DNA from: an uncultured Bacilli bacterium
Lineage (GTDB): Bacteria; Bacillota_I; Bacilli_A; RF39; UBA660
Direction of reading: 5' to 3'
DNA: 64,000 nucleotides
Assembly: GCA_910587775.1 (NCBI GenBank)
Contig: CAJUNF010000001.1
Coordinates: 34,770 to 98,769, forward strand
Shown here: positions 1,124-39,884 of the stretch, one piece after another
How positions within the stretch are numbered: position 1 is the first letter of the stretch
How the letters are laid out: each line of letters begins with the position of its first letter
The notes under the pieces: generated by a model
What the model saw: only the letters and a program-made list of their open reading frames with translations
Told to the model about the DNA's origin: nothing
Databases searched by the model: none
Position numbers and translations under genes: made by a program

Positions 1124-1915
1124 TCAATCCTTTTTATTAAAAAACTGTTTTAATGTCAAATATGATGCAATTGCAGTCATTATTACAGCACTAATAAGAT
1201 TTGGAATATTACTATCATTATTTGAAATATCTAATACTTTAGCACAAAATTGATTTGTAAATATTGTAATAAATGCTAAATTAAATAAACTGAAAGAAAT
1301 TTTGTAGTAAAGATTTATTTTAGTAAGTGTGCATACTAAAATAATAATCCATAAAAATACAAAAACGAATGATGCTATTAGAAAACTGTCTAATAACCAG
1401 TTTGTATTATTAACATAATTTATAGTAAATAATAGCATATATACTAATATTGTAACAATAAGAGAAATTTTACAAAATCTATATTTATTTTTCTTAAGAT
1501 ATAAAGGTAAACTTGTTATTGAAAATGAAATCAAGATACCTAACAATACTATTAAAAACCAAGACAGTTTATGATCTATTACTAAATTACAAAGAAAGCA
1601 AGTAACAATTCCAATCAAATAGCCTAAATTTATTATATTGAAAATCCACTTTTTAATGGTTCTATATTTTTGGATTTCTATTTTTTCTCTTGTTAATGCT
1701 TCATCATCACAAGCACAAAAAAACTCATGTTCAGATATGTGTAATTCCTTACATAAATTTGTTATAACTGTTATGTCTGGATATGATATTCCTCGTTCCC
1801 ATTTTGAGATTGTTGAAGGAATTACATATAATTTGTTTGCTAATTCTTCCTGAGTTAAACCTTTTTCTTTCCTTTTTTCGGCAATATATTTACCAAAACT
1901 TTTTTTATCTTGCAT
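1124..1915 (-). CDS. XRE-family HTH transcriptional regulator with a C-terminal multi-pass membrane domain
   Basis: The N-terminus KGLTQEELANKLYVIPSTISKWERGISYP is a Cro/C1-type HTH. It is followed by about five hydrophobic helices. Confidence 0.6.
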   Translation of the reverse strand: MQDKKSFGKYIAEKRKEKGLTQEELANKLYVIPSTISKWERGISYPDITVITNLCKELHISEHEFFCACDDEALTREKIEIQKYRTIKKWIFNIINLGYLIGIVTCFLCNLVIDHKLSWFLIVLLGILISFSITSLPLYLKKNKYRFCKISLIVTILVYMLLFTINYVNNTNWLLDSFLIASFVFVFLWIIILVCTLTKINLYYKISFSLFNLAFITIFTNQFCAKVLDISNNDSNIPNLISAVIMTAIASYLTLKQFFNKKD

Positions 1916-4782: not shown

Positions 4783-6537
4783 CTAAATATTTATTTTTTT
4801 CTTTCCTTTTCCTTTTCTTTTTTGTTGTAAATATTCTTCAATTATATTAAAGACTTCTATTTCTTCTCCTTCTACTCTTTTTTCATAAATTACAAATTTA
4901 TCATTTTCTATTATTTTAGCATTTGCAAAAAAATCATTAAAATTTACATATTTAACTGAACCATCTTTATAGCTTACAAGTAATGTTGGAGTGATATCAT
5001 TATCTTCTTTTGGTATTTCAACTTTCCAATAAAATTCATTACTATCATTATCGTATTTTACTTTAAAGATTTTATAGTCTATTATTTGGGGAATTTGATA
5101 CAAATTATCATTTTTTATGAAAATAACATCATTTCTCCCAACTAAAGAATTATATTCTTCATACCCACAAAAAGCAAAATTATTTTGAATTACTTCTTTG
5201 AATTCAGTTAATATTCTTTTTATTGTTTCTTTTTGAAGATCATTTTCATATTCTTTGGTTTCAAAATATTTTAAAATATGATTTATTTCGCAAATACGAT
5301 ATAAGTCAATATCTCTTCTATTTAAGATGTCTAAATATATTTTTAAATATGTTATTATTGCTTGTTCATCATTTTTCTCTATTCCATAAATAATCCATTT
5401 TAAGTTAATGTCTATTGTTTGATAAAAGTTTGAAATTCCATAAATATATTCTTTTTTCTCATTTTCACTTAAATTATTATAATAGTATTCCATCATTGGA
5501 TTTTTATTTTGTAAGTAGCTTATTAGAGTTAAAATCTCACTATTTGAAGATAAAGAACTTTCTAAAAAATCATTTGTGATTCTATTTAAAACATTCGGTA
5601 TATTCTCAGGTAATGTTTTACTAGGTACATTGATTACTGTATTTAATGTATCATTCATTACTTTTATAGGATATTCATCTTTTCCTCTTGATAGAAAAGA
5701 CCCAACCGGAATAAAGTTTACTTCTTTATTTTGGATACAAGAAATAAGTAACTCTTTTTCTAATGGAATTGAATCGTAAGTATCTATAATCTTTTCTGTT
5801 ATATCAAAGTAAACGTAATTATCTAAATTTTTAGTACTATTAAGTGTGCTATTTAGTTTCATTAAATCTAGTAAAAGAATTTTTACTTTGTCAATCGTAA
5901 TACCAGCTTTTTCATGGATTAGGTCGATAAGCTTTTCTTCCTGATTTGTTAGTAATAAATAAATTGTTTCATCTTTTCCAACAATATCACAAATAATTGA
6001 TAAACGAATATTTCCAGTATAATCCTTTTTCTCTGAGGATACTATACTTTGTATACAATCTGAAACTAAGTTGTTTTTTTGAATTATGGTTTCATAGTCT
6101 TGTTCCAATAATTCAAATATTTTACGCATATCCATTAAATTAAGACGATATTTATAATTAGCTACTATATAGCGATAAATCGGTAGGTATTCTTCTTTTT
6201 TATAAATTTTTATATAACTTAATATTTCATCACAAATGATTTGATTTTCTGATTCATTATCTAAGAAACATTCTATTGAGGTTTTTACCATTTGATAGTT
6301 TGAATATCCATTTGTTTTCTTTAATAGACCTACTCCAAGTACTGTTAAAAATAAAGCTGTATATCCAGTTTTTTTGATATCATGCATTATTTCTTTTTTT
6401 AATTGTTCTGCGTAATCTTTTTTCTCTTTTTTACTGGCTTGACCAATTTTCTTCGTTTCTTCATCATAATAGTAAAGTTTTCCATTTTTATTTAGGCGAT
6501 AAACTCTTGTTTTTTTCATATAATCCTCTTTTTTCAA
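4783..6537 (-). CDS. hypothetical protein with a single N-proximal TM helix; no recognisable catalytic motif
   Basis: 584-aa ORF with a Lys-rich N-terminus and one hydrophobic helix (TGYTALFLTVLGVGLL). No Walker A, nuclease or other motif was found. It sits between secA and hpf. Confidence 0.5.
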   Translation of the reverse strand: MKKEDYMKKTRVYRLNKNGKLYYYDEETKKIGQASKKEKKDYAEQLKKEIMHDIKKTGYTALFLTVLGVGLLKKTNGYSNYQMVKTSIECFLDNESENQIICDEILSYIKIYKKEEYLPIYRYIVANYKYRLNLMDMRKIFELLEQDYETIIQKNNLVSDCIQSIVSSEKKDYTGNIRLSIICDIVGKDETIYLLLTNQEEKLIDLIHEKAGITIDKVKILLLDLMKLNSTLNSTKNLDNYVYFDITEKIIDTYDSIPLEKELLISCIQNKEVNFIPVGSFLSRGKDEYPIKVMNDTLNTVINVPSKTLPENIPNVLNRITNDFLESSLSSNSEILTLISYLQNKNPMMEYYYNNLSENEKKEYIYGISNFYQTIDINLKWIIYGIEKNDEQAIITYLKIYLDILNRRDIDLYRICEINHILKYFETKEYENDLQKETIKRILTEFKEVIQNNFAFCGYEEYNSLVGRNDVIFIKNDNLYQIPQIIDYKIFKVKYDNDSNEFYWKVEIPKEDNDITPTLLVSYKDGSVKYVNFNDFFANAKIIENDKFVIYEKRVEGEEIEVFNIIEEYLQQKRKGKGKKKINI

Positions 6538-6594
6538 GTAGCCTTATTGTAACGCAAGTTTCTATATTTAAAAAGGAAAATCTTTCGATTCCCC

Positions 6595-7128
6595 TTATTT
6601 TGCATTTATAATACCATAAGTATTATCTTTTCTTTTGTAAACAACAGATGTACATTCTTCTATTTCGTTTTTAAAAATGAAGAAATCGTGTCCTAATAAT
6701 TCCATTTGTAAAATAGCTTCTTCTTCGTCCATAGGTTTCATTTCAAAGTCTTTACGACGAACTATTTTTTTCTCTTCTTGTTCTTCTTCTACACTTTCAA
6801 AAGCCATATTTATTTCAAAGGATGGAACACTTTTGTATTTTCTATTTAATCTAGTTTTATTTTTTCTTATTTGTCTTTCTAGTTTATCCATTACTAAATT
6901 AATGGCAGCATATAAATCTTCATTTGTTTCTTCTGCTCTTAGCGTGAATTTTTTTGTTGGTATGGTTACTTCAACTGTTTGGTCCTTACCATTTACTCTT
7001 GCTAAAACATGGGCGGTTATTTCTTCTGGTATTTCAAAATAGTTATCTAATTTTTTTATTTTTTCCATTATTTGATTTTTAATGGCCTCTGTAATTTCTA
7101 TATTGCTACCACGAACATTTAATTTCAT
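6595..7128 (-). CDS. hpf: ribosome hibernation promoting factor, long form (RaiA/HPF)
   Basis: MKLNVRGSNIEITEAIKNQIMEKIKKLDNYF... is the typical sigma-54-modulation/HPF N-domain. It carries the C-terminal dimerisation extension, for 177 aa total. Confidence 0.85.
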   Translation of the reverse strand: MKLNVRGSNIEITEAIKNQIMEKIKKLDNYFEIPEEITAHVLARVNGKDQTVEVTIPTKKFTLRAEETNEDLYAAINLVMDKLERQIRKNKTRLNRKYKSVPSFEINMAFESVEEEQEEKKIVRRKDFEMKPMDEEEAILQMELLGHDFFIFKNEIEECTSVVYKRKDNTYGIINAK

Positions 7129-7180
7129 ATGATCACCTTCCTAGTTTCAGTATAGCAAAAATTGAAGAAAAAAACTACTG

Positions 7181-7399
7181 TTATTCTACAGTAGCTAAAT
7201 TTGTCTCCATTACATCAACGGCTTGTAATCCTTTAGATGTTTCTATTAATTTAAAATCTACAAGTTCGCCTTCTTTTAAAGTTTTATATCCTTCTTTAAC
7301 AATAGCGGAATAATGAACGAAAATATCTTCTAAGTTTTCGTATTCTATAAAACCATATCCTTTAGTATTGTTAAACCATTTTACTTTTCCTCGCAACAT
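7181..7399 (-). CDS. cold-shock protein (CspA family)
   Basis: MLRGKVKWFNNTKGYGFIEYE... contains the RNP1/RNP2 cold-shock domain motifs. Length is about 70 aa. Confidence 0.85.
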   Translation of the reverse strand: MLRGKVKWFNNTKGYGFIEYENLEDIFVHYSAIVKEGYKTLKEGELVDFKLIETSKGLQAVDVMETNLATVE

Positions 7400-7722
7400 T
7401 CACACCTCTCCTTCTTACTCTATTTACTGCTGATACTACCTTATCATGAATTTCTTTACAGACACAACATAAACCAGTCGACAAATATTTTAAATATTGG
7501 TATATGTTAAACTCATGACATAACTACCATACATTAAATTTTCTGTTTTATTTTTTTCTATGTCTTAAATGATTCAAAATACGTTCGAATTTCATTTTTA
7601 TGATTGTTAATTTTTTGGGAAATCTTTTTCGATTTTGTTTTTTCATTGTTCAAACTAAAAGTCGTTTTTTGCCTTTTTTCTGGGATATAATTCGACTGTA
7701 TTACAAGAAAGGGCAGTATTGA

Positions 7723-8337
7723 GTGAAGAAAAAATTTATAGAAAACGGATATCATTTTATAGCTCGCTACCAAGAGTGTGATCAAGTAAAAACGATTCGT
7801 ATTAAATATGGATTAGAAGCTTTTTATAATTTACTTACAAAAGCTATATTCTTATTATTTGTTACAATCTGTTGCGGTTTATTAAAAGAATATCTTCTGT
7901 TATGTATTATTTATTCTTTAACTAGAAGATATACTTATGGACTACATGCAAGATCAACTGTTATATGTTGGATTACAACTATTCCAATTTATCTTGGAGG
8001 ATGCTTTTTTATTCGTTTTGCTAGTATTCCAATTCAAGTTATCTTTGTAATTTGGATATGTGCATTTCTTTCTTTTCTGTTGTGGGCTCCAGCGGATACC
8101 CCATCTACTCCACTCATACGTTCTGAAGTTAGAAAAAAGCAGAAAATAAAAGCTTGTCTAACTTGTATTATTTTTTTGATCGTAATGTATTTCATTCCAC
8201 AAAAAATAATTATTAATACAATTTGTTATGCACTTGTAGTACAGTCAATAAGTATAAATCCTATTACTTACTGGCTTACTAATACGCCTTATCAAAATTA
8301 TAAGACGTATTTAAAAAATCATGGTTTAAATGGTTAA
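7723..8337 (+). CDS. agrB: accessory gene regulator B (AgrD-processing membrane peptidase)
   Basis: 204 aa with multiple TM segments. The signature RRYTYGLHARSTVICW aligns with the AgrB catalytic region R-R-x-x-x-G-x-H-A. It is followed directly by a small AgrD-like ORF. GTG start at 7723. Confidence 0.8.
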   Translation: MKKKFIENGYHFIARYQECDQVKTIRIKYGLEAFYNLLTKAIFLLFVTICCGLLKEYLLLCIIYSLTRRYTYGLHARSTVICWITTIPIYLGGCFFIRFASIPIQVIFVIWICAFLSFLLWAPADTPSTPLIRSEVRKKQKIKACLTCIIFLIVMYFIPQKIIINTICYALVVQSISINPITYWLTNTPYQNYKTYLKNHGLNG

Positions 8338-8377
8338 TATATATTTAAACAAAATTCAGTTTAAAGGAGGGAAAATT

Positions 8378-8494
8378 GTGAACATTTTTGCTAATGTACT
8401 TTCTGGAATTGCAGATTTATTTGCTAACGTTCCTACAGTTGCTTGTGCTTTCTTATTTTTTGATGAACCAGTAGCACCTGAAGAAATTTTATAA
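8378..8494 (+). CDS. agrD: autoinducing peptide precursor AgrD (38 aa). It is not in the ORF track.
   Basis: RBS AAAGGAGGG at 8364-8372, then GTG at 8378. The translation is MNIFANVLSGIADLFANVPTVACAFLFFDEPVAPEEIL. It shows an N-terminal amphipathic leader, a single Cys five or six residues upstream of a DEPxxPEE acidic tail (compare staphylococcal DEVEVPKEL), and a TAA stop at 8492. Confidence 0.65.
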   Translation: MNIFANVLSGIADLFANVPTVACAFLFFDEPVAPEEIL

Positions 8495-8500
8495 TTATCA

Positions 8501-8535
8501 AAAAAAGATCAAGGCCATATGATCTTTTTTATTTT
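8501..8535. terminator. bidirectional rho-independent terminator shared by convergent agrBD and agrCA
   Basis: An A6 run, then AAGATC (8505-8510), a loop, then GATCTT (8521-8526), then a T-run. On the minus strand the same hairpin is followed by a U-run and overlaps the agrC stop at 8529. Confidence 0.5.
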
Positions 8536-9788
8536 TTCTCAATACTAATTTCACTACGAAATAAATTATTAATTATTGTATTTTTTATTTTTATTTTCTT
8601 TCTTCCCATTATAGAGAATAGTCCTATACCATGGCCAGAATTTTTACTAGTATAGTGTAATTTTCCTAATTCATCTAGATCTAAAATATTTGAAAATGTA
8701 TTCATAACTTTAATTATATATTTTTCTTCTGTTTCAGATAAAGTAATAGCAATAATTTTATCTTTACTTTGAATAGAAGCTTCTAAGGCATTATCTAATA
8801 TTACACCTAAAGATTCACATAATAAATTGTAACTTCTTGCTGTTAGCATATCTACTACATTGGATTCAATGGTATTTTCAATATTTAAGTTTAATGACTC
8901 ACAATTATGGTTGTATATCTTTTCATAAACTAACCCATTAATACCAAGAGGCATCTTTTGCATTCCTTGTACACCTTGGAAACTTTTATTATATTCTTTA
9001 ATTAAATCATCAATTAATTCACATGATTTTTTATTTGAAACACTTTTTATTCCAATTAATTGATTAACAATATTATGTCGCATTATTTTATAATCGTTTA
9101 CAATATTTAAATAAAACTCGTTATTTTTAATCAGGTATTGATTCATTTCTTTTAATGTATAAATATTATATTCATTTACTACATAGAATATAAATAAAAT
9201 TAATACAACGATTAAAATCAAAAATATCATAAAATTATAAGATACTTTATCTAAATTTAAACTACACATAGTTCCACAAAAAATGATAATTCCTAGTAAA
9301 AGAACTGTTTTAGTATAAAATTGATTATTAGTTAAAATTTCATACAATTTTTGAAACATTTTTATAATCTTTTTTTGTGACATTAATAGATATAGGAATG
9401 TTTGATAACTCAGTGTAGATATAGCTTTAAAATAATTTATTGGGATAGTATTTGCTAAATGTTCTATTTTAATTAGTCCCATAATAATCATAATGGTAAA
9501 ATCAAATGCTATTGCTACACACCAAATAAATAACGTTTTATAAATTGCTTCGCCATATTTGACTTTAAAAAGATGTTTAAATAAAATAATAAAATATACA
9601 ATAGATAAGATTACAGTTAATGGTTGAGTCAATATTTTCTCACTATAAATTAATATTCCTGCTATTAAAGTATAGAAAATTAACATACTCAATTTCCATT
9701 CAACTTTTTTGGAAACTAATTTCCCAAAAATAATTGTGTATACGATTTGAGTAATGAAGCTTGAGAATAAATATAAGAGATCTGCCAT
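8529..9788 (-). CDS. agrC: AgrC-like membrane sensor histidine kinase (GHKL/HATPase_c_5 type)
   Basis: 419 aa with about six N-terminal TM helices. The H-box IMRHNIVNQL resembles the AgrC RHDY region. The C-terminal ATPase region carries GHGIGL. It is translationally coupled to the upstream LytTR regulator, with the stop and start sharing position 9788. Confidence 0.75.
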   Translation of the reverse strand: MADLLYLFSSFITQIVYTIIFGKLVSKKVEWKLSMLIFYTLIAGILIYSEKILTQPLTVILSIVYFIILFKHLFKVKYGEAIYKTLFIWCVAIAFDFTIMIIMGLIKIEHLANTIPINYFKAISTLSYQTFLYLLMSQKKIIKMFQKLYEILTNNQFYTKTVLLLGIIIFCGTMCSLNLDKVSYNFMIFLILIVVLILFIFYVVNEYNIYTLKEMNQYLIKNNEFYLNIVNDYKIMRHNIVNQLIGIKSVSNKKSCELIDDLIKEYNKSFQGVQGMQKMPLGINGLVYEKIYNHNCESLNLNIENTIESNVVDMLTARSYNLLCESLGVILDNALEASIQSKDKIIAITLSETEEKYIIKVMNTFSNILDLDELGKLHYTSKNSGHGIGLFSIMGRKKIKIKNTIINNLFRSEISIEKK

Positions 9789-10504
9789 TACTTCTCAACC
9801 TCCTTTTTATATTTCTTAGAAAGATATTCTACTTTTTCTCCATTGTCTAATATAAAATAATTTTTAGGCCAATTCCATTCATGAACTCTTTGTCTATTTG
9901 TTATACAACTTCTATGTGTTTGAATAAACCTTTCATCTAGTAATGTCATAACATCATTTAAATTCATATTTAACTTAAAAATATTGCTATCAGTATGAAT
10001 CAGTACTTTTCTCTCTTCTTTATCTCTTGATATATAAGTTATAGCACGATAATAGATTTGTAAATCAATATTACGATTAGAAACGCAAAACATTTTATTA
10101 TCAAAGTTCTTTTTAAAAATCAGTTCAATATCTTTTTCTAATCTTCTTTCCATATTGTAAAATTTTTCTATAAAATTAAATACTTGATAAACACTGCGAT
10201 AGACTGTTTCAAACATCTTATCATGAGAAGTAATAAATATTATTTCACTTTCCCAATCTTTTTCACGAATCATTTTTGCTATTTCTATCCCACTAGTTTT
10301 GGTTTCTAATTCTATATCCATAATATACACTTTTCTACAAGAATTGTCATCAATTATTTTCTTTAAATCTTTTGAGTACTTTGTAAAATATTTCACATTT
10401 ATGGTGTTATTTTTACTAATTACGACTCTTCTTAAAACATCTTTTATTGTTTCTTGTGTCTTTGGATCATCTTCTACCACAACAAAACTTATCAAACTCC
10501 TCAT
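9788..10504 (-). CDS. agrA: AgrA-like response regulator with a LytTR DNA-binding domain
   Basis: The receiver domain FVVVEDDPKTQETIKDVL parallels AgrA IFICEDDPKQREN. The C-terminal LytTR domain reads (...ITYISRDKEERKVLIHTDSNIFKL...FIQTHRSCITN...). The start is ambiguous: TTG at 10570, ATG at 10558, or ATG at 10504, which is chosen by alignment to AgrA N-termini. Confidence 0.7.
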   Translation of the reverse strand: MRSLISFVVVEDDPKTQETIKDVLRRVVISKNNTINVKYFTKYSKDLKKIIDDNSCRKVYIMDIELETKTSGIEIAKMIREKDWESEIIFITSHDKMFETVYRSVYQVFNFIEKFYNMERRLEKDIELIFKKNFDNKMFCVSNRNIDLQIYYRAITYISRDKEERKVLIHTDSNIFKLNMNLNDVMTLLDERFIQTHRSCITNRQRVHEWNWPKNYFILDNGEKVEYLSKKYKKEVEK

Positions 10505-10574
10505 CCTTTCTTTTTGTTTACTAATTGCAATTATATCATAAAAATTAAGATAATCCATAAAAAAACACAATTTA

Positions 10575-11186
10575 TTAGAAATTGTGTCGAAGAAACATTT
10601 TTATTAAGTATTGATCATAGTCTTCGTAATACAAGACTCTTTTTTTTACCATTATTTCAATTTTTTGTGATATATATGGGATAGTTTTTATAGATCCAAT
10701 ACATATTATCTTTTTTATTTTAGGATATTTTTCTATTATTCTTTGAATATTTTCTTCAATAGAATATTCATTTTCTTTCTGCCATAAAATTGTTTTCTTA
10801 TTTTTTTCATTTAAGAAAGTAATGTAAGCATAATTATCAAATATATTCACCCATATTGTATTTTTCTTACCCTGATATAAATTCACTTCTTTGAAAAATC
10901 TAACTTCACTTACCAAAAAATCTTCTAATGTAATTTGTATAATCTCTTTATCAATTTCTTCAAATGTTGGAGGAGTTAAAAAATATATTATATTTCGATA
11001 AAATTTTTTTAATATTTTTTCTTTTTTAAAAAATTTGTTTAACTCATTTTGAAATTTTGGTCGATGAATAACTTTTCCAAATTTTATTATTTTCGAATCT
11101 ATTTTCCAAGAAAAATATTTAGCTTCTTTTTTTTGATAACAAATGATTTCTTTATCAGTTAGATACATAATGAGTTCGTTTTTCAC
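10575..11186 (-). CDS. hypothetical protein, 4 nt upstream of agrA in the same orientation
   Basis: 203-aa Lys/Ile-rich ORF. No motif was recognised. Confidence 0.4.
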   Translation of the reverse strand: MKNELIMYLTDKEIICYQKKEAKYFSWKIDSKIIKFGKVIHRPKFQNELNKFFKKEKILKKFYRNIIYFLTPPTFEEIDKEIIQITLEDFLVSEVRFFKEVNLYQGKKNTIWVNIFDNYAYITFLNEKNKKTILWQKENEYSIEENIQRIIEKYPKIKKIICIGSIKTIPYISQKIEIMVKKRVLYYEDYDQYLIKMFLRHNF

Positions 11187-11209
11187 TCTTGCACCTATAG
11201 AAAATTTAA

Positions 11210-11860
11210 TTATTTATTTAAATCTTCTAAATTCATTTCAAAGAAATCGATTGGATTTACTAAGGTACCATTGATATAAACTTCAAATAGTAAGCAATTT
11301 TGTTTTTCATTCTCTAAAGAATTTGATCCACTTAAACCAATAATATCATTTGTTTTTACATTCATTCCTTTGGTTACTTTAACTTCACTTAAACTATAAT
11401 AGATTACTGTTACGTTCGTATTATATTCTATTGTTACAACAGAACCTAGTATTTCATCATCTTTAATCTCTTTTACTACACCATCAACACTTGCTAGTAC
11501 TTCAAATTGTTCATCACTACTATATAAAACTCCTGTATTTTGCATGTATGTATTTTGATAGTATATTAAAGATTTTTGTTGAAGTTCTTCTGTATCCTCT
11601 TGTTTATAGAATGATTTACTAATAGTTACGCCATCCTTCGTAAATGGAATAATAGGTTTTTCTGGGGTAGGACTAATAACTGTTATGTCACTATTTTCTT
11701 TATTATCTACATTAACTGTAACAGAATGATTGTTATCATCTACCTGTGGTGCTTTAAAATTTAAACTATTATTTAAAAAATATACTGTTAGAAATACACA
11801 AAAAACTACTAATCCATAAATACTTGGTAATACAAACTTTTTTAACTTTCTTCTTTTCAT
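11210..11860 (-). CDS. SpoIIQ-like membrane protein with a degenerate (non-catalytic) LytM/M23 domain
   Basis: An N-terminal TM helix, then an M23 fold. The HxxxD site reads IEYN (His replaced by Tyr). The HxH motif reads LLFEV in place of HLHFE. The domain ends with the typical INGTLVNP. It lies directly downstream of spoIID, as in Clostridia. Confidence 0.55.
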   Translation of the reverse strand: MKRRKLKKFVLPSIYGLVVFCVFLTVYFLNNSLNFKAPQVDDNNHSVTVNVDNKENSDITVISPTPEKPIIPFTKDGVTISKSFYKQEDTEELQQKSLIYYQNTYMQNTGVLYSSDEQFEVLASVDGVVKEIKDDEILGSVVTIEYNTNVTVIYYSLSEVKVTKGMNVKTNDIIGLSGSNSLENEKQNCLLFEVYINGTLVNPIDFFEMNLEDLNK

Positions 11861-11911: not shown

Positions 11912-12853
11912 TTATATTTTTGAAAATTCTATATTTTGATAATAATGTGTTAAAATTTCATGATATGTTTTTCCTTCTTTGGCCATACCATTTGCTCCAT
12001 ATTGACTCATTCCTACTCCATGACCATTTCCTCTTGTAGTTATTTTTACGTTTTCCATTAATTCAATGTCAAAATCAGTAGAACGTAAGGATAACTTTTT
12101 TCTTACTTCTGTTCCTTTTAATAATTTATCATTTATTTTTATTGTATTTATACGACCTGAGCTGGTACGATTTATATCACTTATAGAAATTTCTTCACAA
12201 GAAATGTTTAGTAATTCACAAAACTCTTCTTTTGAAAATTCTTTTGTTACTTGATAGTTATTTAAAGTTTCATTATCCCAACTAGAATCAACAGAACTTA
12301 AATATGGTAAAGATTCCTGAAAGACTAATTCACAATTTTCTGTTTGACCATTACTCATAGAAAAATAAAATGATTCAATTACTTTTCCTTCATAAGTCAT
12401 GACTAATCCTCTAGTATCATTTACGGCATTTTTAACTTTTTCATAATTTTCTTGATAAGCATTTTCCCATTTTTTTTGCATTTGTTCTATAGTATTATAT
12501 GCTTGATCGGCAACTCCTATTATGACATCATAATCTAAGTTTTGATGTTCCATTTTATAACTTGCAAATGTTCTTGCTGCAATTGCTTGAGCTTTTAGCG
12601 CTTCTATTTCGAAAGAAGCAGGCATTTCTGCTGCTACAACTCCCAAGATATAATCTTCTAGTGGCATGTTAGTGATTTTAGTGGTAGATGGGTCATACAC
12701 ACGAATTGTAGAATCTATATATTCTTCTTTTGGCTTTTCTTGATCATTTTTTGGAAGATCAAAAGAAAAGTTAGTTTTATTTTTTAAACTAACTTCTATC
12801 ATTAAAATTATGCTTAATACTATTATCACTACAATAAGAATTTTATTTTTCAT
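11912..12853 (-). CDS. spoIID: stage II sporulation protein D / SpoIID-LytB family lytic transglycosylase
   Basis: YILGVVAAEMPASFEIEALKAQAIAARTFA matches the SpoIID signature (E-x-P-x-S-x-x-x-EALKAQAVAAR-TYA). There is an N-terminal TM helix. Confidence 0.8.
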   Translation of the reverse strand: MKNKILIVVIIVLSIILMIEVSLKNKTNFSFDLPKNDQEKPKEEYIDSTIRVYDPSTTKITNMPLEDYILGVVAAEMPASFEIEALKAQAIAARTFASYKMEHQNLDYDVIIGVADQAYNTIEQMQKKWENAYQENYEKVKNAVNDTRGLVMTYEGKVIESFYFSMSNGQTENCELVFQESLPYLSSVDSSWDNETLNNYQVTKEFSKEEFCELLNISCEEISISDINRTSSGRINTIKINDKLLKGTEVRKKLSLRSTDFDIELMENVKITTRGNGHGVGMSQYGANGMAKEGKTYHEILTHYYQNIEFSKI

Positions 12854-32786: not shown

Positions 32787-33104
32787 TTATGACAAAAGAT
32801 CTAAAAGCATTTGTTCTAATTCTTCTAATTTTGCTTCTTTGGTCTTTTCTTTCATTATTATAATATAATCTAAGCCGTTTTGAAACTGTTTCTTTTGATT
32901 TGTCAAGATAACTCTCATACGACGTTTTAGTTTATTACGAAAAACAGCATTGCCTAATTTTTTTCCAACTGCTATTCCAAATCTAGAAATATGTAAATTG
33001 TTTTTCCTTATATATATATTATAGTATTTATTTTTTAGACATTTACCTTGTTCAATAACACTTCTAAATTCTTCATGGGTTTTTACTATTTCATATTTTT
33101 TCAT
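32787..33104 (-). CDS. rnpA: ribonuclease P protein component
   Basis: MKKYEIVKTHEEFRSVIEQGK...RNKLKRRMR is the RNR motif region. The start is set at ATG 33104 with an AAGGA RBS. The longer ORF beginning MAFFIKG was rejected. Confidence 0.8.
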   Translation of the reverse strand: MKKYEIVKTHEEFRSVIEQGKCLKNKYYNIYIRKNNLHISRFGIAVGKKLGNAVFRNKLKRRMRVILTNQKKQFQNGLDYIIIMKEKTKEAKLEELEQMLLDLLS

Positions 33105-33144
33105 ATGATCAATTCCTTTTATAAAAAAAGCCACATATCGTGGT

Positions 33145-33267
33145 TTATTTACATAATTGTTTGCGTCCTTTTCTTCTTCTTCTTTTTAAAATATTTGTTT
33201 CTTTACGTGCGAAGAAGCCATGTTTTTTCGCTTTTTTGCGATTATTTGGTTGATAAGTTCTTTTCAT
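33145..33267 (-). CDS. rpmH: 50S ribosomal protein L34 (40 aa). It is not in the ORF track.
   Basis: Minus-strand ATG at 33267 with an AAAGGAGG RBS. It encodes [40 protein letters not shown]. The L34 N-terminal signature is MKRTYQP..RK..K.HGF. TAA stop at 33145. Confidence 0.75.
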
Positions 33268-33340
33268 ATTTGTACCTCCTTTTTCCTTAAAGCTCCCTTA
33301 TTATAAACTTACCACTATTAAAAAGTCAAGAAATAACGGG

Positions 33341-33446
33341 TTATACACAAATTCACATTGATGTTTATAAGATTACACATTATCAACGTTGATAATTATT
33401 CTATGTTGATAATTTCTAAAATCAAAGTTGTGGATAATGTTGATAA
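33341..33446. promoter_or_regulatory. oriC DnaA-box cluster upstream of dnaA
   Basis: One perfect TGTGGATAA at 33429-33437. One-mismatch boxes are TTATACACA (33341), TGTTGATAA (33404) and TGTTGATAA (33438). Weaker matches are TTATCAACG (33380) and GTTGATAAT (33388). Confidence 0.6.
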
Positions 33447-33582
33447 CTATATTTTTATCTGTTAGAATATGAAACCAAGACTGTTTATAAATTGTTAATT
33501 ATGTGTGAATTGTTCTTTCGTACTTGTTTTTAAAATCACAACTGAGTTAAAATGAAGTTGATAAAACGTGAGGGATTGTGGG

Positions 33583-34971
33583 GTGAAGTGGTTGAAAACA
33601 GAAACCGAAACATTATGGCAAAATTTCTTAGATCTTATTTATAAAGAAATCAACGCAGCTTCATTCCATGCGTGGTTTCACGATTTACTTTTACTTAGTA
33701 TAGATCGTTATCAACATAGTATTAAAATTCAGGTACCAATGGAAATTCATCGTAGAATTCTTGGTGAAAACTACTATTCACTCATTGAAGAAACTTTTTT
33801 AAAACTAACTGGTATTACTTTTGATATTGAATTTTTATTAGAAGAAGAAAAAGAAACAATTGTGGATAACTTTCAAAAAGAAATTATTTCTGATGAAAAT
33901 ATTCCTAATGTTATTGCAAAAGATTGGGAATCTAACTTAATTCCAGAACTTAATTTTGATAATTATGTAGTTGGAGATTCTAATCGACTCGCTAAAGTTG
34001 CTGGTATGGCTGTTGCTGAAGCACCTGGCAAAATACATAATCCTTTGTTTATTTACGGAAAAAGTGGACTTGGTAAAACTCATTTAATGCATGCTATTGG
34101 TAATTATATTGTTGAGCATTCTAATAAAAAAGTATTGTATACAACTAGTGATATGTTTATGAATGATTATACTGGAATTGCGAACTTAGAAAATAAAAAT
34201 AATACCGTTGAATACGCGAATAATTTTAAAAATAAATATCGTAATGTTGATGTTTTAATTATTGATGATATTCAATATTTAGTTGGGGCAGAGAAAACAC
34301 AACAAGAATTCTTTCATACATTTAATGCCTTACAACAAGCAAATAAACAGATTATTATAAGTTCTGACCGATCGCCAGATGATTTAAAATTATTAGAAGA
34401 ACGTCTTCGAAGCAGGTTTATGTGGGGATTGCCTGTGGATATCTATCCTCCAGATTTTGAACTTCGTTGTAAAATTATAAAGCAAAAAGTCAAAAATACC
34501 AGTATTGCTAATAAACTTGATGAAACTGTTGTTGAATTTATCGCAAATAGTTGCCAAAATGATGTAAGGTTTTTGGAAGGAACTATAAATCGTTTAATGG
34601 CTTATACTGCTATGGTCGTTCCTGATCATATTGATCTAGAATTTGCTAATGAAGCTTTAAAGGACTTTATTAATAAAAATATTTATTCAGAAAATAGTAT
34701 TGAGGGGATTCAGAATGCAGTAGCAGAGTATTATAATATTACGATTGCTGATCTTAAAGGAAAGAAAAAGAGTGCTAATATTGCTTATCCAAGGCAAATA
34801 GGAATGTATCTTTGTAGAATGCTAACTGATGAAACTTTTCCTAGAATTGGCTTAGAATTTGGTGGAAGAGACCATTCTACTGTAATTCATGCTTGTGATA
34901 AAATTGAAAAGGATTTAAAAACGAATCCGACACTATCAAATACATTAAAAGAAATTAAAAATAAAATATGA
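33583..34971 (+). CDS. dnaA: chromosomal replication initiator protein DnaA
   Basis: The AAA+ Walker A is GKSGLGKTHL. The C-terminal domain IV is ...IGLEFGGRDHSTV. Start candidates are GTG 33568 (longest), GTG 33583 (GAGGGA RBS) and TTG 33592. Confidence 0.95.
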   Translation: MKWLKTETETLWQNFLDLIYKEINAASFHAWFHDLLLLSIDRYQHSIKIQVPMEIHRRILGENYYSLIEETFLKLTGITFDIEFLLEEEKETIVDNFQKEIISDENIPNVIAKDWESNLIPELNFDNYVVGDSNRLAKVAGMAVAEAPGKIHNPLFIYGKSGLGKTHLMHAIGNYIVEHSNKKVLYTTSDMFMNDYTGIANLENKNNTVEYANNFKNKYRNVDVLIIDDIQYLVGAEKTQQEFFHTFNALQQANKQIIISSDRSPDDLKLLEERLRSRFMWGLPVDIYPPDFELRCKIIKQKVKNTSIANKLDETVVEFIANSCQNDVRFLEGTINRLMAYTAMVVPDHIDLEFANEALKDFINKNIYSENSIEGIQNAVAEYYNITIADLKGKKKSANIAYPRQIGMYLCRMLTDETFPRIGLEFGGRDHSTVIHACDKIEKDLKTNPTLSNTLKEIKNKI

Positions 34972-34972
34972 T

Positions 34973-35100
34973 TGTGGATAAATATTTAAAAACTGGATAG
35001 GAATTCACATCAGAATTTTAAAATCTGCTTAGGAAATATCAATGATTTGAAACCTATGCACATTATAAACTGTATTATTATAATTAATATTAAATTAATA
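34973..35100. promoter_or_regulatory. dnaA-dnaN intergenic oriC half: a perfect DnaA box plus an AT-rich candidate unwinding element
   Basis: TGTGGATAA at 34973-34981 lies 1 nt after the dnaA stop. A near-pure A/T run at about 35065-35100 precedes dnaN. Confidence 0.45.
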
Positions 35101-35120
35101 AAAAGAAAGAAGGAAACAAA

Positions 35121-36239
35121 ATGAAATTTTCAATTGATAAAAATATAATATTAGAAAACTTAAGTAATGTAATAAAAGGGGTATCTACAAAAAATGTGAT
35201 TCCAGTATTAAATGGAATTAAATTTGAATTACGTAGTGAAGGTTTGTATTTAACTGCAAGTGATTCTGAATTAGTCATTCAATCTTTTATTGAACGGAAA
35301 TTAATTAAAAATGTAGAAACTGAAGGAGTTATTATAATTGGTAGTAAATATATTTTAGAAATTTTACGAAAGATGCCAAGTGATGTTATTAACTTTGAAG
35401 TTATCGACAGTTTAAAAATAAAAATTTATTCTGATTTTAATCAATATAATTTAAATTGTTTAGATCCTAGTGAATATCCTAATTTAAGATTAGAAGAACA
35501 CAAAGATCCAATTGTATTACAAGGAGATTTATTTAAAACAATTATTAATCAAACAAGTTTTGCTATTTCAACACAAGAACTTCGTCCGCTTTTAACAGGT
35601 GTTAATATTAAAATAACTGGGGATCTTTTAGAATGTATCGCAACAGATTCTTATCGACTTGCAAAGAAGAACATTAAACTTGATACGCCAGTCTTAACAG
35701 ATATTAACATTGTAATTCCAGGAAAAAATATTATAGAATTAGAGAAAATTATTGTTGATAACGAAAACATAGAAATGCATATCTTTAATAATAAAGTTTT
35801 ATTTAAATATAAAAATATTATATTTCAAACTAATTTATTATCAGGAACTTATCCGAATACTTCTAATTTAATTCCTACTGAATTTGAAATTATCGTTCAA
35901 ACTAAAAAAGAAGAATTTGCATCTGCCGTTGATCGTGCTGCTTTGTTAACACAAGGGAAAGATAAAAATATCATAAAAATGCGCATTGAGAATAAAGAGA
36001 TGGTTATTAATTCTTATGCATCTGAAATAGGTAAGACAGAGGAACGTTTGATTGTTGAAACAAGTGAAAATTCAAATATTGATATTTCTTTTAGTGCAAA
36101 ATACATGTTAGAAGCTTTAAAAACTTTAAAAGATGAGGATATTTTAATTTTACTTAACAATGATGTTAAGCCAATAGTTATGAAATCATTGAAAGATGAG
36201 TCATTAATTCAGTTAATTTTACCAATTAAAACATATTAA
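35121..36239 (+). CDS. dnaN: DNA polymerase III beta sliding clamp
   Basis: 372-aa protein with a three-domain beta-clamp layout. It is in the conserved position after dnaA. Confidence 0.95.
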   Translation: MKFSIDKNIILENLSNVIKGVSTKNVIPVLNGIKFELRSEGLYLTASDSELVIQSFIERKLIKNVETEGVIIIGSKYILEILRKMPSDVINFEVIDSLKIKIYSDFNQYNLNCLDPSEYPNLRLEEHKDPIVLQGDLFKTIINQTSFAISTQELRPLLTGVNIKITGDLLECIATDSYRLAKKNIKLDTPVLTDINIVIPGKNIIELEKIIVDNENIEMHIFNNKVLFKYKNIIFQTNLLSGTYPNTSNLIPTEFEIIVQTKKEEFASAVDRAALLTQGKDKNIIKMRIENKEMVINSYASEIGKTEERLIVETSENSNIDISFSAKYMLEALKTLKDEDILILLNNDVKPIVMKSLKDESLIQLILPIKTY

Positions 36240-36324
36240 GACATGAAAATGTCTTTTTTTTGACATTTTTTTCATAAGTTCTGTATTAATATAAGGCCAA
36301 TTTTCCAAGTCAGGGGGTGAATTA

Positions 36325-36783
36325 ATGGAAAATTATGAGATTAATACAGAAACACTTGCTTTAATTTCTTTAAAAAATAAAACAGAGGTATTTGAAGAAA
36401 ATGATCATTTTTTTATTGATAAAGTAGCAAATGAAATTATGGAATCAAGTTGTGAGTATTTTGGAAGTTCATTATCAGGAAGACAGAAGGGAACTGAGCG
36501 GTTAATTGGGGTAAGTTATAAAGCTCCAGTTATAGTGGAAGAGACAGAAGAAATGATTTTTTTTCCGACTGAATCTCCTAGAAATGACAGTTGTTCTTGG
36601 ATTTCACTTCAAAAGATTAATAAATATTTTCGATGTGGAGAAAAGATGGTTATTGAATTTAAGAATGGAAGTAAAGTAGTTTTAGATTTATCATATGGAA
36701 AGCTAGATAATCAAGTTTTACGTGCAACTCGATTGGAGTCTGTTTTAAGAGGGCGAAAAAGCAATAAAAATAGTTTTAAATAA
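36325..36783 (+). CDS. comK: ComK-family protein (competence transcription factor fold)
   Basis: CEYFGSSLSGRQKGT aligns with B. subtilis ComK CRFFGSSYAGRKAGT. KAPVIVEETEEMIFFPTESPRNDSCSWIS aligns with KPPIMVDPSNQIFLFPTLSSTRPQCGWIS. FKNGSKVVLDLSYGKLDNQVLRATRL aligns with FSNGKTMELPISYNSFENQVYRTAWL. Confidence 0.7.
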   Translation: MENYEINTETLALISLKNKTEVFEENDHFFIDKVANEIMESSCEYFGSSLSGRQKGTERLIGVSYKAPVIVEETEEMIFFPTESPRNDSCSWISLQKINKYFRCGEKMVIEFKNGSKVVLDLSYGKLDNQVLRATRLESVLRGRKSNKNSFK

Positions 36784-36868
36784 GCTATTCGTGTGATATA
36801 ATGTTGATAGGTATAGAGGTACATATATACCTATTATTTTTGTATATGGCTTAAAAAGAGGCAAAATT

Positions 36869-39884
<3,016 letters not shown>

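Follow-up and report, generated by a model that had tools for sequence, protein, structure and literature searches.

The 64,000-nt stretch of contig CAJUNF010000001.1 analysed here (the window, to which all coordinates refer) comes from an uncultured mouse-gut bacterium and carries an agr locus. Judged from its sequence, the locus is probably a functional agr-type quorum-sensing system made up of two convergent transcription units, agrBD on the + strand and agrA-agrC on the - strand. A complete locus of this type had been proposed in the initial annotation. All four open reading frames (ORFs) lie where that annotation had placed them, and both the hidden Markov model (HMM) matches and the comparison with related loci agree with the assignment. 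The comparison was based on a clade set of 80 loci, with one genome scanned per species. All 80 come from metagenome-assembled genomes (MAGs) labelled gut 'Bacilli', 'Tenericutes' or 'Mycoplasma sp. CAG:776', and the hosts were mouse, rabbit, chicken and human. The genes of the locus and the terminator between them are:

7723-8337, + strand: agrB, membrane endopeptidase/cyclase processing AgrD (PF04647, E 3.8e-27, 95.3 bits against a cut-off of 23)
8378-8494, + strand: agrD, 38-amino-acid (aa) precursor of the autoinducing peptide (TIGR04223, ORF conservation, fixed nucleophile column)
8501-8530, both strands: bidirectional intrinsic terminator of agrBD and agrA-agrC (A-run, 11-bp stem, 8-nt loop, T-run)
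8529-9788, - strand: agrC, polytopic sensor histidine kinase (HATPase_c_5, E 3.2e-12, 46.7 bits against a cut-off of 22)
9788-10504, - strand: agrA, REC+LytTR response regulator and first gene of agrA-agrC (LytTR, E 2.7e-12; Response_reg, E 4e-10)

The searches proposed earlier for AgrB (PF04647), HATPase_c_5 and LytTR all gave matches. In AgrB, H75 and C82 were invariant among 31 aligned homologues, and we take them to be the counterparts of H77 and C84 in Staphylococcus aureus. The protein has four to five hydrophobic segments. Its relatives in the protein collection numbered 59, one of them labelled 'accessory gene regulator B', and no solved relative was matched in a sequence search of the PDB.

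The agrD ORF starts with GTG 40 nt 3' of agrB, and its product is MNIFANVLSGIADLFANVPTVACAFLFFDEPVAPEEIL. A ribosome-binding site, AAAGGAGGG, is located at 8363-8371, 7 nt 5' of the GTG. The precursor consists of a leader (residues 1-22), Cys23 (codon 8444-8446), a variable core (C23-F28) and a tail (D29-L38); Cys23 is followed by AFLFF and then by the acidic tail DEPVAPEEIL. The strong ribosome-binding site, leader, single Cys and DEPxxPEE tail previously described for this GTG-initiated ORF were all confirmed. On the NCBIfam model TIGR04223, AgrD scored 22.1 bits (E 1.2e-4; cut-off 19), and the same model was matched by 38 of 40 sampled clade peptides (best E 1.3e-10). The ORF is conserved beyond chance: in 74 of the 80 loci, agrB is followed by an AgrD-like ORF that has a ribosome-binding site of the GGAGG type.

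The clade peptides (75 sequences) share the leader pattern M..LANLLSGIANLFA and a tail conserved as [DE]EPxx[PD]E[ED]L[LI], in which EP is invariant in the alignment. The cores are hypervariable, with 71 distinct 6-residue cores among the 75 peptides. In all 75 the nucleophile column (Cys, Ser or Thr) is placed exactly 6 residues before [DE]EP. The residue preceding [DE]EP was F in 30 peptides, W in 25, Y in 10, L in 9 and A in 1; as it is variable, it behaves as part of the core and not of the tail. In S. aureus AgrD-I, 5 residues are found at the equivalent spacing (CDFIM|DEVEVPKEL), compared with the 6 seen here.

Because of the constant spacing of 6 residues between nucleophile and tail, we infer that a 6-residue ring (CAFLFF) is most likely, and this ring is clearly favoured over CAFLF. 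The initial annotation had kept both rings possible. Under the alternative, AgrB would cut between F27 and F28, the tail would start with FDEP and the ring would be the usual CAFLF; 5-residue macrocycles are by far the commonest among characterised autoinducing peptides (PMC12312760). The variable residue before [DE]EP is, however, unlike a conserved recognition tail, and the 6-residue spacing holds in 75 of 75 peptides. Moreover, Clostridium acetobutylicum, with the same spacing of C+5 followed by YEP, is listed with a 6-residue ring, [CVLVTL] (PMC12312760), and the synthetic 6-residue-ring peptide R6T0 of this species was active (PMC10301443). We therefore regard the 5-residue ring as unlikely. 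The calculated [M+H]+ values for the CAFLFF ring series are 729.343 (ring alone), 800.380 (with A-), 899.448 (with VA-) and 1000.496 (with TVA-); for the CAFLF ring series they are 582.275, 653.312, 752.380 and 853.428.

The description of the signal as previously unlisted did not hold. An identical 38-aa AgrD is present in the public protein collection (NCBI and Logan assemblies), on 8 public contigs; on 16 further public contigs the agrD ORF was called as a 54-aa protein with its start at the ATG at 8330. The core TVACAFLFF also occurs in a second species (locus L001).

Among the 75 peptides, the cyclisation column was Cys in 41, Thr in 33 and Ser in 1. The Thr types include L025, L030, L035, L041, L044 and L050-L065, and all 33 carry a Cys in the tail (DEPxCPEE). 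Such precursors would yield threonine-lactone peptides. In an assembly of the same species as the window (GCA_948814925.1; L081, at ~6670), the agrD leader has a 42-nt in-frame deletion corresponding to window positions 8393-8434, which may reflect either faulty assembly or a naturally occurring signal-negative variant.

The best solved relatives of AgrC were the S. aureus AgrC kinase module 6e52 (E 1.5e-9) and, after it, 4bxi. Residues 1-205 form about six hydrophobic segments, and the kinase boxes are present: the H-box MRH(238)NIVNQL, the N-box DNALEAS and the G-box GHGIGL. Against the staphylococcal equivalog NF046015, AgrC reached 20.7 bits, below the cut-off of 500. By these scores, AgrC is of the same class as staphylococcal AgrC and not at ortholog level. 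Both domains of AgrA were above their cut-offs (Response_reg 40.3 bits, LytTR 47.2 bits), and the protein matched the NCBIfam AgrA model with E 9.2e-13, under the equivalog cut-off. AgrA aligns with ComE (4cbv), including the MDIE acceptor region with the acceptor Asp. Homologue alignments start at residue 4, and the true agrA start may be the TTG at 10495.

The match between receptor and peptide was seen in the way the proteins diverge. Over 30 loci, the mean identity to the window was 56% for AgrA, 44% for the kinase half of AgrC and 25% for the sensor half. At L001, which has the identical core TVACAFLFF, the sensor identity was 72%. At L002, with the core SSKCWGFVW, AgrA was 84% identical and the kinase half 53%, and the sensor was at 26%. 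The sensor half co-diverges with the peptide core, as expected of an agr pair. Hence, pairing of the kinase and regulator with another peptide system is unsupported, and no further agr gene, agr paralogue or other peptide system was found in the 64-kb window.

When the window proteins were compared with the 80 loci by tblastn, the arrangement agrB(+) agrD(+) agrC(-) agrA(-) was found in essentially every contig that was long enough. The convergence of the two units that had been claimed earlier is thus a property of the clade, but the order of the second unit is agrA then agrC and not agrCA: the stop and start codons overlap in TAATG at 9788. In a few loci the arrangement is modified. L026 has two agrC genes in tandem, L039 has two agrA genes, and in L048, L054 and L064 an insert of 0.5-2.2 kb separates agrD from agrC. 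In a further assembly of the same species (GCA_951801145.1; L082:6757-6883), the sequence tracks the window to the agrD stop and then continues into inverted spoIID via a 17-nt overlap. Window positions 8478-8494 are joined there to 12071-12197, and the contig stops at this point; the junction results either from a chimeric assembly or from an inverted agrC-to-spoIID segment.

The agrD stop codon (8492-8494) is separated by 34 nt from that of agrC (8529-8531), and the two flank the hairpin at 8501-8530, which overlaps the agrC stop codon. This hairpin had been proposed as a shared bidirectional terminator, and it folds on both strands, with -9.9 kcal/mol (z -3.2) and -10.3 kcal/mol (z -2.1). 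A simple terminator scan over 7300-10800 found no terminator, as the stem contains too few G-C pairs for such a scan to pick up the hairpin. For the comparison across the clade, the 67 loci with both stop codons placed at most 200 nt apart were used. Their median stop-to-stop gap was 39 nt, and the hairpin had z < -2 against shuffles in 85% of them (median -13 kcal/mol). An A-run and a T-run border nearly all of the clade hairpins, whose sequence varies between loci. Retention of the structure while the sequence changes gives good grounds to regard the hairpin as a working bidirectional terminator.

Upstream of agrB, the spacer to the divergent gene csp contains a putative promoter for each direction and two direct-repeat pairs:

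7181-7399, - strand: csp, cold-shock-domain gene, candidate output (Pfam CSD, E 1.3e-24)
7526-7531, - strand: probable csp -10, TATGGT (conserved block, fixed distance to the repeats)
7559-7592, directed towards csp: direct-repeat pair 1, candidate LytTR (AgrA) boxes (cores TGTCTTAAA at 7561-7569 and CGTTCGAAT at 7582-7590)
7624-7658, directed towards agrB: direct-repeat pair 2, degenerate here (cores TTTTCGATT at 7626-7634 and GTTCAAACT at 7648-7656)
7686-7691, + strand: agrBD -10, TATAAT (invariant when the nine closest loci are aligned)

In 78 of the 80 loci, csp lies next to agrB on its upstream side and diverges from it. At the aligned position of the csp -10, relatives have TGGTATAAT; the window copy has matches at only 4 of 6 positions. 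The agrBD -10 is TATACT in distant loci. It has neither a TG extension nor a match to a -35, and only 4 of 53 loci have a -35 that matches at 4 or more of the 6 positions. The TATAAT with a poor -35 was part of the initial annotation; it stood, and a promoter of this kind fits activator dependence. Two other elements described in this region fared less well. Instead of the 15-bp palindrome, no inverted repeat with a 6-nt seed was found in 7590-7670. Of the ATTGTT(A/C)A repeats, the ATTGTTAA copy at 7603 is unconserved, and a conserved block overlaps the one at 7646.

Pair 1 has the pattern TGTCTnAAA-N12-TGTCTnAAA with a period of 21 bp and is situated ~160 nt 5' of agrB; on the - strand the unit reads TTTnAGACA. 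With at least 13 of 16 consensus matches it was found in 47 of the 80 loci, compared with 1.65 expected. Consensus counting in the 64-kb window was at chance level and overlooked the window's own copy. Scored with a position weight matrix, pair 1 of the window reached 19.7, the best pair score in the 64 kb. In 673 kb of related loci, the top 24 pairs were all located in the csp-agrB spacer (0-1 expected). Between the proximal repeat and the csp -10, the modal distance was 29 nt (17 of 31 loci). No conserved + strand -10 was found just 3' of pair 1, and pair 1 was therefore assigned to csp.

Pair 2 was detected with the weight matrix derived from pair 1 of the clade. It exceeded the 95th shuffle percentile in 67.5% of loci, and the wrong orientation did so in 8.75%. 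Its modal gap to the agrBD -10 was 29-30 nt (23 of 41 loci); in the window, the proximal core ends 29 nt 5' of TATAAT. For the window copy, this geometry and the conservation of the block in the closest loci point weakly to a site.

Readings of the repeat as a Spo0A box (TGTCGAA) or a CodY box were rejected in a by-eye comparison because the matrix has T or any base where G would be required. A search of 6500-11500 against Rfam gave no family and only a sub-threshold cspA match within the csp coding region.

The promoter of the second unit is built differently. It was located, together with a hairpin upstream of it, at:

10516-10538, - strand: agrA-agrC promoter (extended -10 TGATATAAT, reverse complement of 10530-10538, then TGCAATTAGTAAAC, reverse complement of 10516-10529)
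10566-10588, - strand: hairpin ACACAATTT-N5-AAATTGTGT followed by a T-run (read from the sequence), which ends a 203-aa ORF

This -10 was present in 56 of 56 loci and TG-extended in 30. The motif T[GA]C-N5-AGTAAAC follows it directly on the 3' side in nearly all loci (~50), at an operator-like position. No direct-repeat pair was found 5' of agrA-agrC, with 1.8% above threshold. Equivalent hairpins occur at the matching place in related loci, and the hairpin at 10566-10588 would insulate the agrA-agrC promoter. The 203-aa ORF (10575-11186, - strand) lies directly 5' of agrA, has its own terminator and is without a Pfam domain or NCBIfam match. At least 23 of 64 loci have a detectable copy in the corresponding position.

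Taken as a working system, agrB-agrD would make the signal. AgrB (His75/Cys82) would remove DEPVAPEEIL from AgrD and then join Cys23 to the new C-terminus, giving a thiolactone. The agrA-agrC unit, with an extended -10, no repeat boxes and TAATG-coupled translation, probably provides a basal supply of receptor and regulator. The hypervariable six-helix sensor of AgrC would detect the peptide, and AgrC would phosphorylate AgrA at Asp63. Phosphorylated AgrA would bind the 9-bp repeats (TTTnAGACA, 12-bp spacer) ~29 nt 5' of the agrBD -10, leading to autoinduction. The better-conserved pair, equally distant from the divergent csp -10, would make csp an output of the system. The single A/T-flanked hairpin between the stop codons would terminate both units.

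Several observations weigh against this scheme. In the PF05931 search proposed for AgrD, the protein remained under the gathering score (14.5 compared with 22.7 bits), although it is above the cut-off of TIGR04223; the PF05931 model is centred on staphylococcal sequences. At about -10 kcal/mol, the A-U-rich terminator hairpin is weak. In the window, the second unit of pair 1 has 4 of 8 consensus matches, and pair 2 is weak (score -1.4). The repeat motif is A/T-rich and bears little resemblance to the S. aureus AgrA box. The csp promoter of the relatives has an extended -10, and csp may therefore need no activator. The adjacency of csp may reflect only vertical synteny of the whole neighbourhood. 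Finally, as to expression, peptide production and DNA binding, the system is known here from its sequence alone. A different reading of the spacer is that the TGTCTnAAA repeats serve the csp promoter or another regulator and that agrBD is constitutively transcribed from TATAAT. Pair 1 indeed has the canonical activator distance to the csp -10 but not to the agrBD -10, the motif shows no close similarity to ACAGTTAAG, window pair 2 is weak, agrA-agrC has no repeat pair, and no other repeat-pair site above chance was found elsewhere in the 64-kb window. However, 9-bp repeats with a 12-bp spacer are a hallmark of LytTR binding, and AgrA is the sole LytTR protein encoded nearby. The motif also occurs in the opposite orientation, with a gap of 29-30 nt, before the agrBD -10 that lacks a -35, in two thirds of the loci, and the best 24 pairs in 673 kb are all in this spacer. 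S. aureus AgrA binds direct-repeat pairs 5' of the divergent promoters P2 and P3 (PMC4227749). We consider it rather improbable that the repeats are not AgrA sites, and we infer, with moderate confidence, that AgrA binds them.

It is also conceivable that the locus is a decaying or silent remnant, in which AgrD is not made or the kinase and regulator answer another signal. The same-species assembly with the 42-nt in-frame deletion in the agrD leader would fit such decay, and agr-defective variants are common in staphylococci (PMC12312760). Against this, the four ORFs are intact with their catalytic and phospho-transfer residues present; the agrD ORF, its ribosome-binding site and the terminator are kept across the clade; the sensor co-varies with the peptide; and the window is without a second agr or peptide system. 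A remnant is thus highly improbable, and a functional agr-type system is the reading we retain. Beyond this, the clade may have a distinct agr design, in which agrBD and csp are both activated by AgrA via repeat pairs, Csp, as an RNA chaperone, functionally replaces RNAIII, the receptor operon is constitutive and insulated by a bidirectional terminator, and the members with Thr at the cyclisation position make threonine lactones. We put this forward as a tentative suggestion.

The locus shares with S. aureus agr the four protein families (AgrB, AgrD, HPK10-type AgrC and REC+LytTR AgrA), the three-part AgrD with a tail that aligns as DE-x-E-x-P-x-E-L, and the hypervariability of peptide core and sensor. 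As with P2 and P3, a repeat pair is placed before each of two divergent promoters (PMC4227749). Each of the four proteins is a member of an agr family, but on the staphylococcal equivalog models their scores lie far below the cut-offs. The layout is unlike the classical staphylococcal one, as had been noted initially. In S. aureus, a single agrBDCA operon is transcribed from P2 with RNAIII divergent from P3, whereas the window has two convergent units, agrBD and agrA-agrC, on opposite strands. The receptor operon starts with agrA and is served by a separate extended -10 without repeats, and the divergent gene is csp and not RNAIII.

With the C. acetobutylicum type the locus has in common separate signal and response units and the predicted 6-residue macrocycle (PMC10301443, PMC12312760), the absence of an RNAIII-like RNA, and a host with sporulation genes (SpoIID). 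The units converge on one terminator here and run in the same direction there, and the order is agrA-agrC here. A LanM-like gene is located downstream in the C. acetobutylicum type, whereas the neighbours here are an M23 peptidase, SpoIID and an ORF without a domain. The hosts here are uncultured gut Bacilli/'Tenericutes' MAGs and not Clostridium. In Clostridioides difficile agr2 (agrACDB), agrA also precedes agrC, and the chromosomal order here, read from the - strand, is likewise A-C-D-B. The C. difficile locus reportedly behaves as one transcript (PMC3754575), whereas agrBD and agrA-agrC occupy different strands in the window.

From clostridia, an agrBD operon distinct from agrCA and rings of 6 residues are known, and serine lactones have already been described (PMC10301443, PMC12312760). 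Mining has yielded tens of thousands of AgrD precursors, gut microbiomes included (PMC12180512, PMC11953309), with 29,921 from RefSeq (PMC12180512). The convergent agrBD/agrCA layout with a shared terminator, a csp-side repeat pair or agr-csp link, and Thr-containing AgrD or threonine-lactone autoinducing peptides were not found in the literature searched, where absence is no proof. New here are the clade-wide 6-residue spacing between nucleophile and DEP and the two oppositely oriented 9-bp repeat pairs in the csp-agrB spacer. The convergent layout, the csp-side repeats and the Thr column appear to be modest variations. Otherwise the agr locus is ordinary; the system is of a well-known kind, and its layout is common to a clade of gut Bacilli.

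The window has a G+C content of ~26% and includes the replication-origin region at 32787-39884, with rnpA, dnaA (33568-34971), dnaN, recF and gyrB. The GC-skew changes sign near 34 kb. The agr locus is ~25 kb to the left of this region, with agrBD head-on to replication and agrA-agrC co-directional. As spoIID and the origin genes are present in the window, the locus is chromosomal, ~25 kb from oriC. The order of the neighbourhood is secA-hpf-csp-agr-M23-spoIID, with SpoIID at 11912-12853. The AgrB sequence of the window is also present in the NCBI assemblies GCA_948814925.1 and GCA_951801145.1. Further along the - strand, the ORF at 4783-6537 (584 aa) is without a Pfam domain. The gene at 1124-1915 (- strand), adjoining secA, encodes a 263-aa protein with an N-terminal XRE-type HTH (HTH_3) and no further recognised domain, and it is kept in the same-species assemblies.

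For small-genome gut Bacilli, which have no cultured representative in these data, the locus provides a concrete signal candidate that can be synthesised, namely the CAFLFF thiolactone with or without a short tail. As agr adjoins csp in nearly all of the clade loci (78 of 80), it is a core trait of the lineage and not a mobile accessory. The peptide gene and the sensor half of agrC are not contiguous, and hence a single hypervariable exchange cassette of the staphylococcal style is impossible here. If the repeats are AgrA sites, the system would have a simple output, with a cold-shock-domain protein in place of a regulatory RNA.

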